In this document: one piece after another, positions 19,129-31,801 of the stretch
Layout: every line of letters begins with the position of its first letter
How positions within the stretch are numbered: position 1 is the stretch's first letter
Source: Synechococcus sp. A15-28
Lineage (GTDB): Bacteria; Cyanobacteriota; Cyanobacteriia; PCC-6307; Cyanobiaceae
Length of the DNA: 32,000 bases
Assembly (NCBI RefSeq): GCF_014280175.1
Contig: NZ_CP047931.1
Span: 1,230,001-1,262,000 of the forward strand
Direction: 5' to 3'
Made by a program: the position numbers and the translations under genes
Notes under the pieces: model-generated
Told to the model about the DNA's origin: nothing
Databases searched by the model: none
Seen by the model: only the letters and a program-made list of their open reading frames with translations

Positions 19129-19277
19129 CGTCTTCAGACGGGGATTTCTTCAACCTAGCCACGCAAATCCAACGTAAATGTGACGACTCAAACCAAAGCA
19201 TTCGTCATGGCGCCCTGTCAGAGCTGGACAACGTGATACTGGGGGACTAAGACAGAAATGTCGTCACCACGACGCAG

Positions 19278-19344
19278 CGTTCACTTCGCTTTCTGCGGAG
19301 CGCAGCTCGACTCAGGCCATGGAACGGGGGTCTGGGCTTGCTTC
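19278..19344 (+). promoter_or_regulatory. Structured leader RNA, copy 1 (glutamine-riboswitch-like, glnA RNA / Downstream-peptide family)
   Basis: CGUUC (19278-19282) pairs with GAACG in GGAACGGGG (19321-19329). The internal hairpin is CUUCGC/UUUCU/GCGGAG. The 44-nt 3' block is 40/44 identical to copy 2. It sits upstream of a short ORF. Confidence 0.6.
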
Positions 19345-25837: not shown

Positions 25838-25851
25838 GTAGCAACTGCTAC
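25838..25851. promoter_or_regulatory. Perfect GTA-N8-TAC palindrome (NtcA-type site)
   Basis: GTAGCAACTGCTAC, extended as TGTAGCA-AC-TGCTACA, ends 7 nt before leader copy 2. Confidence 0.45.
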
Positions 25852-25858
25852 AGCATCA

Positions 25859-25925
25859 CGTTCACCTCACCTCCGGTGAGGCGCAGTTCGACTCAGGCCA
25901 TGGAACGGGGACCTGAGCTTGCTTC
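25859..25925 (+). promoter_or_regulatory. Structured leader RNA, copy 2 (glutamine-riboswitch-like)
   Basis: CGUUC (25859-25863) pairs with GAACG in GGAACGGGG (25902-25910). The hairpin is CCUCACC/UCC/GGUGAGG. CUCAGG pairs with CCUGAG around the conserved CCAUGGAACGGGG. It lies directly upstream of a DUF4278-type peptide gene. Confidence 0.65.
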
Positions 25926-25937
25926 GAGGAACCCATC

Positions 25938-26042
25938 ATGACCCTGACCTATCGCGGCCAGAAGTACGTGCAGAACAACGCTGCTGCCCAAAACAGCAAG
26001 CGTTCTGTTTTGGTGTATCGCGGTCACAAAGTGGCTCAGTAA
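25938..26042 (+). CDS. DUF4278-type short peptide (34 aa)
   Basis: MTLTYRGQKYVQNNAAAQNSKRSVLVYRGHKVAQ has two YRGxK(Y/V) repeats, as remembered for DUF4278. It is absent from the ORF track (<60 aa) and is followed by an intrinsic terminator. Confidence 0.7.
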   Translation: MTLTYRGQKYVQNNAAAQNSKRSVLVYRGHKVAQ

Positions 26043-26097: not shown

Positions 26098-26346
26098 TCA
26101 GCCAACGGTTAATTCACCATCAACGCCGTACTGATGTAGACACTGCTTCACCGTGAGCACCGACAGGGTGCTGCCTGTGTCGGCATCGAACAACACGTAG
26201 GGACAGCCCCGAACAACACAGCGACGGCGCGCATCCACGTAGGCATTAAACAGGGTCTGGTGGGAACATTCCTCCACCCAGCCGCTGCTGCTCAAATAGC
26301 GCGTCAGGATCATGCGCCCCTCACAGATGCTTCCGTGATGGCCCAT
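26098..26346 (-). CDS. Hypothetical Cys-containing protein (71-82 aa)
   Basis: ATG at 26346 or 26313. No family was recognised. Confidence 0.4.
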   Translation of the reverse strand: MGHHGSICEGRMILTRYLSSSGWVEECSHQTLFNAYVDARRRCVVRGCPYVLFDADTGSTLSVLTVKQCLHQYGVDGELTVG

Positions 26347-26476
26347 GCATCGGTGAGATCGCCGAAGTTACCTGAACTCTTCGGGATCAGAGCCGCCTGA
26401 TGGGTACCCCCTGTTGTTCAGCACAACCAACCAGCGCTTGAAGATCGCGTTAGGAGGGGGCGTCGACCCAATCGGA

Positions 26477-26662
26477 ATGCCACTGTTCGTCTGTGCCGGC
26501 TGCAGCATGCGCATCGAGCGCTCGATGGCCACTTATCTGCGCATGAAAGGCCGCGTGCTGTGCTCCACCTGTCTGGACCGCATGGAGGCTGAACAGACGG
26601 ATGGCAAAGACAGAAACGAACCAGGCCCCTCGAAGCCGACTCGAACCTCACCGATCAGTTGA
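26477..26662 (+). CDS. Small zinc-ribbon-like protein (61 aa)
   Basis: From the internal ATG 26477: MPLFVCAGCSMRIERSMATYLRMKGRVLCSTCLDRMEAEQ..., with CxxC...CxxC. Confidence 0.45.
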   Translation: MPLFVCAGCSMRIERSMATYLRMKGRVLCSTCLDRMEAEQTDGKDRNEPGPSKPTRTSPIS

Positions 26663-26731
26663 TGGCGACATTTCGTAGCTGATCACACCACATGAGTTGC
26701 CGCTGCAACGGACAGTGGGCTTGCGGAGAAA

Positions 26732-26820
26732 CCTAGGGTTCCGGTTCCGTCAGGGATGACTGGTCCGAGAGGTTTCGGTCGGTTCTGCCGACTGCACGGA
26801 GGGACAAAAGCCCGGGAGAC
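26732..26820 (+). promoter_or_regulatory. Guanidine-I (ykkC) riboswitch aptamer
   Basis: CTAGGGTTCCGG (26733-26744), GGTCCGAGAG (26762-26771) and ACGGAGGGACAAAAGCCCGGGAGA (26796-26819) occur in the order of the remembered ykkC consensus, 25 nt upstream of the hydrolase ATG. Confidence 0.85.
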
Positions 26821-26844
26821 CGCATCCACCCCATCTCCCCTCCG

Positions 26845-28035
26845 ATGTCCTCCCCCTCAGACCCCACTGGGGCCTTCCAGCGATCGCACCCCAGCGAGGG
26901 TTTCGCTGCGCTCGAAAAAGAACGGAAACTCCCGCTCACCGGCTGGCAACAGGAAGTTGATCAGGCCAAGCGTTTTGGCCTCGAAGCAGCCGAGAGCATC
27001 GTGGACCGCAACATCTCCACGTTTTCGCGAGGCGAATTGCCTCACTTTGCAGGAATCAACACTTTCATGAAGGCTCCCTACCTGGAGGATGTCACCCAGG
27101 TGGGGAACTACGACGTCGCCATCATCGGAGTACCCCACGATTGTGGGACGACGTACCGACCAGGCACCCGATTCGGCCCCCAGGGCATCCGCAGGATTTC
27201 TGCGCTGTACACCCCGTACAACTACGAGATGGGAGTGGACCTGCGTGAACAGATCACCCTGTGCGATGTCGGAGACATCTTCACGATTCCAGCCAACAAC
27301 GAGAAGAGTTTCGATCAGATCTCCAAGGGCATCGCCCACGTCTTCGCCAGCGGCGCCTTCCCGATCATTCTCGGCGGCGACCACTCCATCGGCTTCCCCA
27401 CTGTTCGTGGTGTTTGCCGCCATCTCGGTGACAAGAAAGTGGGCATCATCCACTTCGATCGACATGTCGACACCCAGGAGATCGACCTGGATGAACGCAT
27501 GCACACCTGTCCGTGGTTCCACGCCACCAACATGGCGAATGCCCCAGCTGAAAACCTGGTGCAGCTCGGCATCGGTGGTTGGCAAGTTCCCAGGGAAGGG
27601 GTGAAGGTTTGCCGTGAACGCGGCACCAACGTTCTCACAGTCACCGACATCACCGAGATGGGCCTGGAGGCGGCTGCTCAGTACGCCATAGAACGGGCCA
27701 CGGATGGTACTGACTGCGTCTACATCTCCTTTGATATCGACTGCATCGATGCCGGCTTTGTGCCGGGTACCGGTTGGCCCGAACCGGGCGGCCTGCTGCC
27801 GCGAGAAGCCCTCAAGCTGCTCGAGTTGATTGTCCGCAATATCCCGGTCTGTGGGCTCGAGATCGTTGAGGTGTCGCCTCCGTATGACATTAGTGACATG
27901 ACCTCATTGATGGCCACCCGCGTGATCTGCGATGCCATGGCTCACCTCGTGGTCAGCGGCCAGCTGCCCCGAAAGGGCACGCCGGCCTGGATCAGCGATG
28001 TCTGCAACATGAACGTCGATCAGAAGTGGAGGTAA
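26845..28035 (+). CDS. gdmH: Arginase-fold ureohydrolase, GdmH-like guanidine hydrolase (automated labels would say agmatinase/SpeB)
   Basis: Metal-ligand motifs GGDHSI, FDRHVD and SFDIDCIDAGFVPGTG. The length is about 396 aa with an N-terminal extension, as in Sll1077. It follows a guanidine riboswitch and precedes HypA/HypB-like genes. Confidence 0.8.
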   Translation: MSSPSDPTGAFQRSHPSEGFAALEKERKLPLTGWQQEVDQAKRFGLEAAESIVDRNISTFSRGELPHFAGINTFMKAPYLEDVTQVGNYDVAIIGVPHDCGTTYRPGTRFGPQGIRRISALYTPYNYEMGVDLREQITLCDVGDIFTIPANNEKSFDQISKGIAHVFASGAFPIILGGDHSIGFPTVRGVCRHLGDKKVGIIHFDRHVDTQEIDLDERMHTCPWFHATNMANAPAENLVQLGIGGWQVPREGVKVCRERGTNVLTVTDITEMGLEAAAQYAIERATDGTDCVYISFDIDCIDAGFVPGTGWPEPGGLLPREALKLLELIVRNIPVCGLEIVEVSPPYDISDMTSLMATRVICDAMAHLVVSGQLPRKGTPAWISDVCNMNVDQKWR

Positions 28036-28038
28036 GCC

Positions 28039-28437
28039 ATGCACGAAGTCGACATGACCAAATGTCTACAGATCTCCCTCAATGAGTGGCGGGAACGTCG
28101 GGATGATCCCAGCGCAATGGTGGAAGTCATTCATCTCGATGTGGGGCGTTTCACCTGCGTGGAGCCCGATCAGCTGGTGACCACGTACAACGCCGCTGTC
28201 CAGGGCACCTGGCTGGATGGCTCCCGACTCACCATCACAGACATCCCCTTCGTTGGGTGCTGTGTGCTCTGCAAAAGCAGTTATTCCCCAACTCCGGAGA
28301 ACGCCTACCGATCCCCCTGCTGTGATCACCCCCTTGAAGACATTCTCAGCGGCAGGGAACTGAGGATCCGCAGCATCGATTACCGCAGTGATCCAGGTGC
28401 TGCTCTTGAGTCCACCTCAATCCAGCGTTCGCGCTGA
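28039..28437 (+). CDS. ghaA: HypA-like nickel metallochaperone (GhaA-like)
   Basis: N-terminal MHE nickel-binding motif, and Cys cluster CCVLC-x15-CCDH in place of the usual two CxxC pairs. It starts 3 nt after the hydrolase stop. Confidence 0.75.
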
Positions 28438-28456
28438 AACCCATAACGACATAACC

Positions 28457-29176
28457 ATGCACATGCCCCTCGAGGACACCCTCGGTCTCAACCTTCTCGC
28501 CGCCAACCAACACCAGGCGGAGCACAACCAGGAGCACTTTGAGTGTTGGAACCTGCTCTGCCTCAATCTGATGAGCAGTCCTGGAGCCGGTAAGACGGCC
28601 CTGCTGGAACGCTCCCTTCCCGTCCTGACAGCGCAGCACAAGATGGCTGTCTTGGAGGGAGACATGACCACCCAGCTCGACGCTGAGCGGCTTGAGGCCG
28701 TCGGCATTCCGGTGGTGCCCATCACCACCGGTCGGGCGTGCCATCTCGATGCCTCCATGGTGAGCGGTGGGCTCACATTGCTGAAACAGCGACTGGATCC
28801 CGCCCAGCTCGATCTGCTGCTGGTGGAGAACGTCGGAAACCTCGTTTGTCCCGCCGAATTTGATGTTGGCGAACACCACAAGGTGGCCCTGCTCAGCGTC
28901 ACCGAAGGCGACGACAAACCACTTAAATACCCGCTGATGTTCCGTCAGGCCGATGTGGTGCTGATCACCAAGGTCGATCTGCTTCCCCACCTGCCTGTGG
29001 AGCTGGGGGCGATCCGCCGCAACATCCTCAGCATCAATCCCAACGCCACGGTGATCGAGGTCTCCGCCATCAGCGGCGAAGGGCTCGAGACCTGGCACCA
29101 GTGGGTGCGACAGGCCATTGCCGAGCGCACCACTGGAGCTTCAGCCATTCAGTCCCCCGCTCTGGCTACCGCCTGA
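28457..29176 (+). CDS. ghaB: HypB-like nickel GTPase (GhaB-like)
   Basis: P-loop SSPGAGKT, the CH metal motif (GRACHLDA), ENVGNLVCP and TKVDL. The ATG at 28457 is preferred over the track start at 28388, which overlaps the ghaA-like gene. Confidence 0.85.
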
Positions 29177-29214
29177 GCACAGTCCCTCTCCTCCTTCCCC
29201 ATCACGCCAATGCC

Positions 29215-30216
29215 ATGACCAAACAACTCCGCAATCTCCTGATCGCCGGCCTGGCGGTCGTTCTGGCCGTTGCCTGTTCCAAACCCTCAACGCCAGCGGT
29301 GGGCGGGACTCCGATCGTGCTCGGCTACAGCAACTGGGCCGGCTGGTGGCCATGGGCCATCGCCGTGGAAGAGAAGCTGTTCGAAAAGAACGGCGTGAAC
29401 GTTGAAATGAAATGGTTCGACGGCTACGTGCAGTCGATGGAAACCTTTGCTGCCGGCAAGATCGACGGCAATTCCCAAACACTCAACGACACCATCTCCT
29501 TCCTGCCTGGTGAGAACGGTGGCGAGGTTGTAGTGCTGGTCAACGACAATTCCGCCGGCAACGATCAGATCATTGCCGATGCCTCGATCACATCCGTCGC
29601 CGAACTAAAAGGCAAGACGGTGGCTGTGGAAGAAGGAGTCGTCGACGACTATCTGCTCAGCCTTGCCCTGAAGGATGTCGGCCTCAGCCGTGAGGATGTA
29701 GTGATCAAGGGCATGCCCACAGACCAGGCCGCCACGGCTTTCGCAGCCGGTCAGGTGGATGCTGTCGGCGCCTTCCCTCCTTACACCGGCACTGCTATGC
29801 AGCGAGAGGGTGCTCGGGTGATTGCCAGCTCCAAGGAGTATCCAGGCGCCATCCCTGATCTGCTCACTGTCAGTGGTGATTTGATCAAGGAACGGCCCGA
29901 CGACGTTCAAAAGATCGTCAAAACCTGGTGGGATGTGCGCGACTACATGGAGAAGAACCCCGAGAAATCGGAGGCGATCATGGCCAAGAGAGCTGGCATC
30001 CCCACAGAGGAATACGAGCAGTACAAGGACGGAACCCGTTTTTTCTCGATCAAGGAGAACCTGGAAGCTTTCAGCGATGGCGAGGGAATGCAATTCATGC
30101 CTTACGCCTCGGAATCCATGGCTGACTTCATGGTGTCGGTCGGATTCATTCCCGAGAAACCGGACATGAGCAACCTGTTCGATTCCAGCTTCATCAAGAA
30201 GGTCGCTGACTCCTGA
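29215..30216 (+). CDS. ABC transporter substrate-binding lipoprotein (NitT/TauT, NMT1-like)
   Basis: From ATG 29215: MTKQLRNLLIAGLAVVLAVAC (lipobox), then an NMT1/THI5-like SBP pattern (GYSNWAGWWPW). Confidence 0.82.
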   Translation: MTKQLRNLLIAGLAVVLAVACSKPSTPAVGGTPIVLGYSNWAGWWPWAIAVEEKLFEKNGVNVEMKWFDGYVQSMETFAAGKIDGNSQTLNDTISFLPGENGGEVVVLVNDNSAGNDQIIADASITSVAELKGKTVAVEEGVVDDYLLSLALKDVGLSREDVVIKGMPTDQAATAFAAGQVDAVGAFPPYTGTAMQREGARVIASSKEYPGAIPDLLTVSGDLIKERPDDVQKIVKTWWDVRDYMEKNPEKSEAIMAKRAGIPTEEYEQYKDGTRFFSIKENLEAFSDGEGMQFMPYASESMADFMVSVGFIPEKPDMSNLFDSSFIKKVADS

Positions 30217-31043
30217 TGACTGTCACGGCCGCCGCTGCCCACAAGGGGAAGAGCGCAGGGCTCCTCTCTCTGGTCACCCTGGGGGCCACCCCGTCGGGAA
30301 CCGTGCGCGGCGGCCTGCAGGTCGCCTCCCTGCTTCTTCCCCTGCTGGCCTGGGCTGCTATCGCCTCACTTGGGCTGGTGGATGAGAAATTTCTGCCGTC
30401 TCCAGCGGCTGTTTTCAAGTCCCTGGCCTCCATGGCCGAAAGCGGCATCCTGTTTCAGGACATCGTCGCCAGCACCGGACGCGTCTTCGCCGGATTCCTT
30501 CTGGCCACGGTGCTGGCCGTACCGATCGGTATCTGCATGGGGGTTTACCCGGCGATCTGCGCTCTCTGTGAGCCTCTGATCGCCATGCTGCGCTACATGC
30601 CGGCAGCCGCGTTCATCCCCCTGCTGATCATCTACCTCGGCATTGGTGAAGAACCCAAGATCGCGTTGATCTTTCTTGGCACGATCTATTTCAACATCCT
30701 GATGGTGATGGATGCGGTGAAATTCGTTCCCAAGGAACTCATCGAAACCACCCTGACACTCGGCGGCCGCAGCAGTCAGGTTCTGGTGCAGGTTGTGGCG
30801 CGTTACAGCTTGCCGAGCATCATCGACACCCTGCGCATCAACATCGCCACGTCCTGGAATCTCGTGGTGGTGGCTGAGCTTGTGGCAGCCGAAGTGGGTC
30901 TGGGCAAACGCATTCAATTGGCCCAGCGTTTCTTCCGCACGGATCAGATCTTTGCCGAGCTGATCGTGCTTGGGCTGATCGGGTTCGCTATCGACATGGG
31001 CTTCCGACTGTTGCTTCGTCTCAGCTGTCGTTGGGCGGTCTGA
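30216..31043 (+). CDS. ABC transporter permease (NitT/TauT family)
   Basis: About six TM helices and a BPD-type permease pattern. The ATG overlaps the SBP stop (TGATG at 30214-30218). Confidence 0.86.
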   Translation: MTVTAAAAHKGKSAGLLSLVTLGATPSGTVRGGLQVASLLLPLLAWAAIASLGLVDEKFLPSPAAVFKSLASMAESGILFQDIVASTGRVFAGFLLATVLAVPIGICMGVYPAICALCEPLIAMLRYMPAAAFIPLLIIYLGIGEEPKIALIFLGTIYFNILMVMDAVKFVPKELIETTLTLGGRSSQVLVQVVARYSLPSIIDTLRINIATSWNLVVVAELVAAEVGLGKRIQLAQRFFRTDQIFAELIVLGLIGFAIDMGFRLLLRLSCRWAV

Positions 31044-31045
31044 CC

Positions 31046-31801
31046 ATGGAACTGAGCGTCCATAACTTATCCAAGCGCTATGGCGACAAAACGATTCTCC
31101 AGGGCATCAATTTCTCGATGCAGTCCGGTGATTTCGTTACCTTCGTCGGCAGCTCAGGTTGTGGCAAGAGCACCCTGCTACGGCTGATTGCAGGTCTCGA
31201 TCAGCCCAGCAGCGGCAGCATCCATGTGGATGGTTCACCGGTTCAAGCGCCGGGCCCGGACCGTGGCATGGTGTTTCAGAAATACAGCCTCTATCCGTGG
31301 CTGAATGCAGCCGATAACGTCGCCTTCGGCATGCGGCTGCAAGGGTTGAAGCCAGCGGACGTGCGCGAGCGCACCGCCTACTTCCTGGAGGTGGTGGGTC
31401 TGCAGGAAGCCGCCACCAAACTCCCGCGGGAACTCTCCGGTGGCATGCAGCAACGGGTGGCCATCGCCCGAGCCTTGGCCACCAATCCAAGCGTGCTTCT
31501 CCTTGATGAACCCTTTGGTGCTCTGGACCTCCAGATTCGGGAAACCATGCAGGATTTCCTGCTCAAACTCTGGCAACGTACGGGTCTGACCGTGCTTCTG
31601 ATCACCCACGATGTGGAGGAAGCCCTCGTCCTGGCTCAACGGGTTTACGTGCTGGCACCAAACCCCGGCCGCATCATCCGCTCCCTCGACGTGAACCTGA
31701 ACAAAGGCGATCTGGACAAGCTCCGCCTCAGCGGTGAGTTCCTGCAGCTGCGCCGCAGCCTTTCAGGATCGCTGCGTCAGCTGGAATCAACCGTGGGTTG
31801 A
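31046..31801 (+). CDS. ABC transporter ATP-binding protein
   Basis: Walker A GSSGCGKST, signature LSGGMQQR, Walker B LLLDEPF and H-loop ITHD. The ATG at 31046 is preferred over TTG at 31031. Confidence 0.9.
   Translation: MELSVHNLSKRYGDKTILQGINFSMQSGDFVTFVGSSGCGKSTLLRLIAGLDQPSSGSIHVDGSPVQAPGPDRGMVFQKYSLYPWLNAADNVAFGMRLQGLKPADVRERTAYFLEVVGLQEAATKLPRELSGGMQQRVAIARALATNPSVLLLDEPFGALDLQIRETMQDFLLKLWQRTGLTVLLITHDVEEALVLAQRVYVLAPNPGRIIRSLDVNLNKGDLDKLRLSGEFLQLRRSLSGSLRQLESTVG

Follow-up and report, generated by a model that had tools for sequence, protein, structure and literature searches.

In cyanobacteria, a guanidine-I riboswitch (ykkC subtype 1; Rfam: RF00442) has been characterized in the 5' untranslated region (5' UTR) of the gdmH gene (sll1077) of Synechocystis sp. 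PCC 6803, where it binds guanidine (Kd ~58 uM) and raises the output of a reporter 4-5 fold (Itzenhäuser et al., 2025; PMC12704784). The present analysis concerns the corresponding element in Synechococcus sp. A15-28 (GCF_014280175.1). The analyzed stretch, hereafter the window, comprises positions 1,230,001-1,262,000 of NZ_CP047931.1 on the forward strand (32,000 nt), and all coordinates below are window-based. The two loci share RF00442 in the 5' UTR, the gene order gdmH-ghaA-ghaB followed by gimABC, as well as NtcA-dependent transcription and a guanidine ON response, both of which are predicted for the window. They differ in that transcriptional control was inferred by the authors for Synechocystis, whereas the window has no terminator, a 24-nt linker lacking a Shine-Dalgarno (SD) sequence, and a possible GCGG:CCGC helix. 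Additionally, Synechocystis has an internal promoter before gimA, whereas no second NtcA box was found by pattern matching before gimA in the window.

In marine Synechococcus, the speB2(gdmH)-hypA-hypB-tauABC-like cluster is known as Syn-eCAG_001 (Doré et al., 2023; PMC10119275). The part of that paper dealing with this cluster concerns the same group of organisms, the same gene order, and the same riboswitch position as here, the ykkC riboswitch being located immediately upstream of the cluster in Synechococcus reference genomes. That the motif is present is noted there with a citation of RegPrecise; analysis of the promoter, the expression platform, or the mechanism was not found in that part. 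Because of this report and of the validated Synechocystis orthologue with its NtcA control (PMC12704784), the locus type and the riboswitch position are already published for marine Synechococcus and represent by themselves no new biology. New here are the contrast with terminator-bearing orthologues, the exact spacing of the NtcA box, and a putative P0 clamp. No description of a picocyanobacterial guanidine-I expression platform was found in the literature searched.

Guanidine-I riboswitches are described in a review as usually transcriptional (PMC12186494). Guanidine-II and guanidine-III are translational ON switches in which guanidine is proposed to free the initiation region (PMC12186494), as is proposed below for the window. 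These two classes differ from the window element by their unrelated folds and by exposing an SD, whereas the window leader has none.

The best explanation for the window is that the riboswitch is located at the extreme 5' end of an mRNA which depends on NtcA and carries the operon gdmH-ghaA-ghaB-gimABC for guanidine assimilation. Its best-supported mechanism, which we hold with moderate confidence from sequence comparison and folding predictions, is a translational ON switch. Such a switch had been proposed in an earlier note on this DNA; the short SD-less linker, the lack of a terminator, and the predicted pairing of the start region speak for it, whereas the specific 7-nt helix named there is not established.

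For the comparative analysis, a GdmH search with one genome per species yielded 80 loci. The aptamer was found in 48 of these, belonging to Synechococcus, Cyanobium, and relatives, as well as in the window. These 48 picocyanobacterial loci together with the window are referred to as the 49 leaders. A metagenome scan by P3 sequence yielded a further set of 122 aptamers.

A full-length match to RF00442 (Guanidine-I) was found by cmscan of the 32 kb at 26722-26820 on the + strand; it scores 86.6 bits (gathering score, 63; E = 2.1e-14) and covers model positions 1-107 of 107. No rival Rfam family was found below E = 0.79 in a permissive scan of 26600-26950, and the aptamer is therefore far beyond chance. 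This match bears out the guanidine-I (ykkC) identity given in the earlier note, and the three ykkC blocks read there are exact and in order: CTAGGGTTCCGG (26733-26744), GGTCCGAGAG (26762-26771), and ACGGAGGGACAAAAGCCCGGGAGA (26796-26819). The aptamer features are as follows.

26722..26820, + strand: guanidine-I (ykkC subtype 1) aptamer with helices P1, P1a, P1b, P2, and P3 (RF00442; RNAalifold).
26768, + strand: the A of GGUCCG-A-GAG, read as the residue by which guanidine-I (adenosine) is told apart from subtype 2, its position being mapped by inference from the adjacent conserved G.
26795..26819, + strand: P3 hairpin (C26795:G26815, GGG26801-03:CCC26811-13) with the pocket ACGGA and the 3' tail GAGA (cmscan structure line).

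Helices P1, P1a, P1b, P2, and P3 were all recovered by RNAalifold from the 48 picocyanobacterial leaders. Compensatory changes were found in 15 of the 27 helix pairs, which argues that the aptamer is under structural selection; P3 is invariant across the 48 leaders and is uninformative for covariation. The pocket blocks CUAGGGUUCCG, GGUCCGAGAG, ACGGAGGGA, and GCCCGGGAG are all intact in the window. In many relatives, GGUCCGAGAG is replaced by GGUCCAAGAG, yet their aptamers score 75-90 bits, above the Rfam threshold. In the column of window position 26767 (GGUCC-G/A-AGAG), A replaces a highly conserved G in about one third of the picocyanobacterial aptamers. These aptamers carry the substitution next to the subtype-discriminating adenosine, yet pass the Rfam threshold. 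In ykkC subtype 2, the discriminating position is occupied by a pyrimidine (PMC6031431). Assignment to subtype 2 (phosphoribosyl pyrophosphate, PRPP, or guanosine tetraphosphate, ppGpp) was rejected on the A at 26768, the guanidine assimilation operon downstream, and the lack of any subtype 2 family among the matches listed up to E = 10 in the local Rfam scan. At the sequence level, the element is a genuine guanidine-I aptamer, and this identification is fully supported.

The predicted promoter and the two strands of the possible terminal helix, which the earlier note does not mention, are located around the aptamer.

26675..26688, + strand: NtcA-type box GTAGCTGATCACAC (GTA-N8-CAC), found by pattern match.
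26711..26716, + strand: -10-like hexamer GACAGT, at -12 to -7 from the predicted transcript start, inferred from the NtcA-box spacing.
26723..26726, + strand: GCGG, identified by conservation, where the transcript is predicted to begin and which would provide the 5' strand of a P0-like helix.
26820..26823, + strand: CCGC, 3' strand of the P0-like helix, identified by conservation.

In 45 of the 48 picocyanobacterial loci, and also in the window, a GT(A)-N8-xAC box is located exactly 48 nt upstream of GCGG (49 nt in 3 loci). The center of the box lies at -41.5 relative to G26723, which is the geometry of NtcA-activated promoters. The loose NtcA pattern alone is not significant, having 5 matches in the window against 4.5 expected. 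Hexamers resembling GACAGT (gacagt, cacact, catact) were found in relatives, and no promoter was found around the leader by a sigma-70 consensus scan. An NtcA-activated gdmH promoter has been published for Synechocystis (PMC12704784). The transcript start is predicted at G26723, the first G of GCGG. Downstream of the NtcA-like box and upstream of the -10-like hexamer, the 5-bp arms GTTGC/GCAAC form an inverted repeat in GTTGCCGCTGCAAC (26696-26709), which was not encountered in those relatives that were inspected.

The ATG of gdmH is located 24 nt past the end of the Rfam match and 26 nt past the GGGAG tail. The region between the aptamer and the first codons has two parts.

26824..26844, + strand: linker rich in C, poor in G, and without an SD (landing region of the ribosome), with TCTCCC (26834-39), complementary to the tail, and CCCTCCG (26838-44), complementary to P3.
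26845..26856, + strand: start ATG and the C-rich codons 2-4 (TCC TCC CCC), where GUCCUC(C)CC (26847-26855) is predicted to pair with GGAGGGAC (26798-26806) in minimum free energy and duplex predictions.

Of the 25 nucleotides at 26820-26844, 16 are C and 2 are G, and equally skewed 25-nt windows make up 0.016% of the 32 kb. In the 49 leaders, the ATG consistently lies only 22-38 nt past the aptamer, and the linkers contain 55% C and 14% G. The position of the ATG relative to the aptamer is kept in relatives, and the Sll1077 structure aligns query residue 15 to chain residue 11. No GGAG or GAGG was found within 20 nt of the gdmH ATG. Sequestration of an SD was rejected for gdmH, which has none (ghaA has GGAGG), and in the model as revised, a landing pad without an SD would be sequestered together with the start codon.

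No + strand terminator was found between the aptamer and the ATG in a consensus scan of 26300-27200. The same scanner also missed the long-looped riboswitch terminators of two filamentous cyanobacterial leaders (L076 and L072), so the regions were folded directly and T tracts were counted. The maximal number of T per 8 nt is 2-5 in all 49 leaders, and an intrinsic terminator was rejected for the window, in which no + strand site was found and T does not exceed 5 per 8 nt. The absence of a U tract after the aptamer, remarked on earlier, holds in both respects. To our knowledge, cyanobacteria have no Rho, and Rho-dependent termination on the C-rich tract was rejected on this established ground.

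In contrast, the six filamentous gdmH leaders (L072, L074, L076-L079) have a hairpin of -32 to -37 kcal/mol with AAAAGCCCGGGAGG as its 5' arm, followed by a T tract, a further 30-50 nt, and a GGAG SD. Their linkers are 76-91 nt long, and they have no GCGG or CCGC. These terminator-type leaders have the same aptamer as the window, and in them the 3' strand of P3 and the tail are shared by the aptamer and the OFF helix. They differ from the window in having a hairpin, a T tract, and an SD, whereas in the window, with neither a terminator nor an SD, the predicted OFF partner is the translation start region. Among the leaders compared, one orthologous aptamer is combined with two apparent expression platforms, a terminator in filamentous cyanobacteria and a short SD-less linker with a possible P0 clamp in picocyanobacteria. 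In the metagenome set, 31 of the 104 other aptamers long enough to score have no T-rich tract within 65 nt; guanidine-I leaders without a terminator are therefore not rare.

The start region of the window is complementary to the aptamer at two sites. As the earlier note had it, CCCTCCG (26838-26844), which abuts the ATG at 26845, is the exact reverse complement of CGGAGGG (26797-26803), and TCTCCC (26834-26839) that of GGGAGA (26814-26819). Both complements share 26838-26839 and therefore cannot both form in full. When the fold is left free rather than constrained to the aptamer, the 5' strand of P3 and the tail are predicted to pair with the start region, in agreement with the earlier proposal. 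Two registers were found by unconstrained folding. In register 1, GCACGGAGGG pairs with CCCUCCG-A-UGU, so that the 7-nt helix is extended over the UG of the AUG. Register 2 consists of GG-AGGGAC:GUCCUC-CC (codons 1-4) together with GGGAGA:UCUCCC. Which of them appears in the window folds depends on the 3' boundary chosen.

In the ensemble of the window, the probability of downstream pairing is 0.70 for the 5' strand of P3 and 0.92 for the tail. For the 49 leaders taken together, the corresponding values are 0.70 and 0.63, against 0.11 for the rest of the aptamer. Pairing of the P3 strand with the linker only has a probability of 0.55, compared with 0.33 after composition-matched shuffling and 0.13 when the linker has a genome-like composition. 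The energy needed to open the region from -15 to +15 averages 15.9 kcal/mol over the 49 leaders when the aptamer is free to compete and 8.2 when it is withdrawn; in the controls, shuffling of the aptamer gave 12.8 and shuffling of the linker 12.2. In the window, it is 13.7 kcal/mol with the aptamer free, 4.7 with it withdrawn (a rise of 9 kcal/mol), and 9.3 with the linker shuffled. In 45 of the 49 leaders, the region is harder to open than with a shuffled linker. The statistical support for sequestration is moderate.

The two ends of the aptamer are further marked by a conserved pair of sequences. GCGG is invariant in 47 of the 48 genome loci and in all 15 environmental leaders of the gdmH type, and is not found in terminator-type leaders. 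CCGC follows the GGGAG(A/G) tail in 48 of the 48 leaders. Both elements, complementary to each other, are invariant in 62 of 63 related leaders. The 15 environmental leaders all have GCGGA and CCGC. Among the 122 metagenome aptamers with this P3, the xCCGC tail was found in 16, of which 15 are of the picocyanobacterial gdmH type and the sixteenth is L117, described below. Once the aptamer fold is enforced in constrained folding, GCGG and CCGC pair spontaneously. In a nested structure this helix crosses the OFF pairing, and the two are therefore mutually exclusive. GCGG probably pairs with CCGC as a P0-like clamp in the bound state. Neither P0 nor the OFF helix was predicted in the MAFFT/RNAalifold consensus of the 48 leaders; because the aptamer strand, GCGG, and CCGC are invariant, covariation is not assessable for either helix.

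No P0-like clamp was found reported for guanidine-I in the literature searched. In the PRPP and ppGpp relatives of ykkC subtype 2 (Knappenberger et al., 2018; PMC6031431), the 5' and 3' flanks can likewise pair (P0), and GCGG:CCGC would make the same four-way junction in the window. So far, a P0 of this kind has been described only for these relatives, where it is part of the expression platform; guanidine aptamers are stated to lack it (PMC6031431). Subtype 2 differs from the window element by a pyrimidine where the window has A, by its association with purine or amino-acid genes, and by P0 nucleotides contacting the larger ligand, whereas P0 in the window is a prediction. A GCGG...GCCGC pair was also found in the metagenome sequence Ga0308309_10299120 (L117:169-260), where a guanidine-I aptamer is followed by a GGAG SD and an open reading frame (ORF) starting MHLSPSEREKLLLVVA. 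This ORF resembles a urease gamma subunit, and a riboswitch-urease association outside cyanobacteria is possible.

The translational ON switch would operate as follows. Without guanidine, the weak four-pair P3 hairpin would open, and its freed G-rich 5' strand (CGGAGGG[AC]) and the tail (GGGAGA) would pair with the C-rich SD-less region from about -11 to +11, with several overlapping OFF registers being possible. This pairing would raise the cost of 30S binding and keep translation OFF. With guanidine, P3 and the pocket would be locked and the 5'-terminal GCGG would clamp CCGC, excluding the OFF pairing; the landing pad and the start codon would then be free, and translation would be ON. NtcA, responding to nitrogen limitation, and guanidine, acting through the riboswitch, would together form an AND gate. 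The downstream genes would follow through coupling, ghaA starting 4 nt past the gdmH stop, or through mRNA protection.

Several results weigh against this mechanism. In the window itself, the opening energy barely drops when the aptamer is shuffled (13.7 vs. 13.1 kcal/mol). Perfect complements of at least 7 nt to the 3' half of the aptamer arise in 7% of composition-matched linker shuffles (P ~0.07) and in 2% of genome-like ones. The mean duplex energy is -17.0 kcal/mol vs. -14.9 for shuffled linkers (z ~-0.9). The best complement varies in position and identity between lineages, and in several it is a perfect match of only 4 nt; it abuts the ATG in the window and in L004, L006, and L162, and lies at about -18 to -10 in Cyanobium (CCUCCGUG). 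The unpaired probability of the AUG is the same as in the controls (0.505 vs. 0.54 and 0.507). The constrained fold is dominated by a trivial 4-bp CAUC:GAUG hairpin, and opening energies were used instead of this measure. The OFF fold is favored by ~20 kcal/mol in nearest-neighbor terms (-64.0 vs. -43.6), far beyond what ligand binding can supply; the model therefore requires a contribution of tertiary contacts, P0, and/or kinetic control. P0 has no covariation, and the conservation of GCGG could instead reflect constraints on the promoter or the initial transcript. The gimA leaders of relatives, which have no adjacent aptamer, are also C- or pyrimidine-rich and G-poor (T-rich in Prochlorococcus). 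For their own riboswitch, the Synechocystis authors assume transcriptional control (PMC12704784).

On these shuffling tests, the exact 7-nt complement was downgraded as strong evidence, and CGGAGGG:CCCUCCG, put forward earlier as the switch helix, is not established: its P is ~0.07, its position is not conserved, and an equally good register competes with it. The C-richness of the linker was likewise downgraded as a riboswitch-specific signature. Because the gimA leaders share this composition, it probably represents the normal SD-less landing pad of these organisms. In the window, the ghaB-gimA leader (29177-29214) has no SD, and its last 30 nt (29185-29214) contain 17 C and 2 G, as skewed as the riboswitch linker; it is the other intergenic case of such composition in the window.

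The alternative that fares best is that the complementarity is incidental, an ordinary SD-less landing pad happening to face an invariant G-rich pocket strand, with regulation following another route, e.g., compaction, steric occlusion of the start, or mRNA decay. The composition of the gimA leaders and the duplex energies already reached by shuffled linkers are in its favor, as is the longest complement, which averages 6.0 nt as observed vs. 4.95 nt when shuffled. We nevertheless consider it unlikely, since the order of the linker matters, both for pairing of the P3 strand and for the opening energies of the 49 leaders compared with shuffled linkers. Additionally, 8-nt perfect complements (P 0.006-0.03) were found in several lineages, and leaders of the L001 type have an interrupted complement to the whole P3 hairpin at -13 to +9 (z ~-2). 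An ATG located 22-38 nt from the aptamer, moreover, cannot escape competition with a free G-rich strand.

Somewhat less probable still is mRNA stability as the main output, instead of or besides translation initiation. P0 would then bury the 5' end and/or ribosomes would protect the message, whereas the free 5' end and untranslated leader of the apo form would be exposed to RNase E or RNase J. The predicted transcript start as the first G of a GCGG able to pair with CCGC fits this possibility, as does the need to control six genes from one leader; in guanidine-III, access of RNase E is controlled as well as translation (PMC12186494). Against it, the start is a prediction, P0 is putative and has no covariation, the C-rich leader has no obvious AU-rich RNase E site, and an effect on stability could be primary or secondary.

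Premature transcription termination under ligand control, intrinsic or factor-dependent, appears very unlikely in the window. A hairpin with a T tract is missing from the + strand, the 49 leaders have the low T counts given above vs. the clear terminators of the filamentous leaders, the gap between the aptamer and the ATG is only 24 nt, and, as far as we know, Rho is absent from cyanobacteria. In its favor, the C-rich, G-poor tract resembles a Rho utilization site, and termination is the classical mode of guanidine-I, demonstrated or usual in the class (PMC12186494) and assumed for Synechocystis (PMC12704784). That the element is decaying or has already lost its function, for which the degraded aptamer of Synechococcus MIT S9452 and the Prochlorococcus loci without aptamer might be cited, is highly improbable against the 86.6 bits and intact conserved blocks of the window copy, the covariation of the helices across 48 leaders, and the conserved spacing to the promoter and to the ATG.

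Beyond the translational ON switch of the window itself, we tentatively propose, with somewhat less than even confidence and from sequence comparison, that the picocyanobacterial guanidine-I elements form a distinct terminator-less subclass. Its members would have a GCGG start at a fixed spacing from the NtcA box and a P0 formed with CCGC, and ligand-driven closure of P0 and P3 would free an SD-less, anti-SD-like C-rich pad from the SD-like GGAGGG.

The aptamer has not been retained at all gdmH loci. In Synechococcus sp. MIT S9452 (L009:2790-3000), the gdmH leader keeps catcggtggaacaaaagcctgggagaccgc, the conserved aptamer blocks are lost, and there is no RF00442 match; this looks like a decayed riboswitch before intact gdmH and gimA. 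No aptamer was found by a regular-expression screen in the Prochlorococcus loci L043, L046-L048, L050-L053, L055-L060, L063-L067, L070, and L080, of which L043 and L056 were also scanned with Rfam. The regions upstream of gdmH in L043 and L056 are AT-rich, and Prochlorococcus GdmH is 84% identical to that of the window.

The genes downstream of the riboswitch are guanidine-related, encoding a GdmH orthologue, HypA/HypB-like chaperones, and a GimABC-like transporter.

26845..28035, + strand: gdmH, Ni-dependent guanidine hydrolase orthologue of 396 aa, annotated as agmatinase/speB2 (Pfam Arginase, E 1e-78).
28039..28437, + strand: ghaA, HypA-like (NCBIfam/Pfam HypA).
28388..29176, + strand: ORF of ghaB, HypB-like, with its likely start at ATG 28457 (NCBIfam/Pfam HypB).
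29215..30216, + strand: GimA-like binding protein (SsuA/TauA-like) of an ABC importer (NCBIfam).
30216..31043, + strand: GimB-like permease (TauC-like family; NCBIfam).
31031..31801, + strand: GimC-like ATPase (TauB-like family; NCBIfam).

GdmH of the window matches the structures of Synechocystis Sll1077 (PDB: 7esr/7oi1) with E = 9.5e-229. Its closest proteins are from marine Synechococcus, and it is 96% identical to the protein of Synechococcus CC9605. Sll1077 is the Ni-dependent guanidine hydrolase GdmH (PMC12704784; also PMC8390497), and GimA of Synechocystis binds guanidine (PMC12704784). By their family matches, ghaA and ghaB correspond to the Ni chaperones GhaA and GhaB and gimABC to the importer, predicted to form a six-gene operon with gdmH. 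The start of ghaA follows the gdmH stop at the 4 nt already mentioned, and its SD, GGAGG, is located 7-11 nt upstream, within the 3' end of gdmH. GimA of Prochlorococcus is ~84% identical to that of the window, and GimA of Cyanobium only 42-55%, which suggests two GimA transporter lineages. Upstream, the predicted gdmH promoter adjoins an ORF of 82 aa (26414-26662, + strand). Its two CxxC pairs are zinc-ribbon-like, and neither Pfam nor NCBIfam gave a match. Weakly conserved copies of this ORF were found upstream of gdmH in L001, L002, L003, and L005.

Two Glutamine-II aptamers (RF01704; threshold 33) were also found in the window, at 19275-19336 (+ strand, 60.4 bits) and 25856-25917 (+ strand, 72.2 bits). 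Together with guanidine-I, three nitrogen-related riboswitches are located within 7.5 kb. The second Glutamine-II aptamer is followed by an ORF of 34 aa (25938-26042), MTLTYRGQKYVQ...VYRGHKVAQ, in which a YRG motif recurs. A perfect NtcA palindrome, GTAGCAACTGCTAC (GTA-N8-TAC on both strands; 25838-25851), ends 5 nt before this aptamer. Because the palindrome is too close to the aptamer for the activating -41.5 position, NtcA repression at the promoter of the second Glutamine-II aptamer is suggested.

The two groups of leaders offer a clean case from nature, albeit of modest value, in which the expression platform has turned over while the aptamer stayed the same, and a caution that guanidine-I switches are not to be presumed transcriptional when used as synthetic-biology parts. 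This marine Synechococcus has a complete riboswitch-gated guanidine module comprising a hydrolase, Ni chaperones, and a high-affinity importer, which fits current work on guanidine as an overlooked oceanic nitrogen source. If the proposed subclass is real, the transcriptional assumption for cyanobacterial gdmH riboswitches would fail for the most abundant marine cyanobacteria, and the use of guanidine in the ocean would require both nitrogen status AND guanidine as signals, each acting at a different level.

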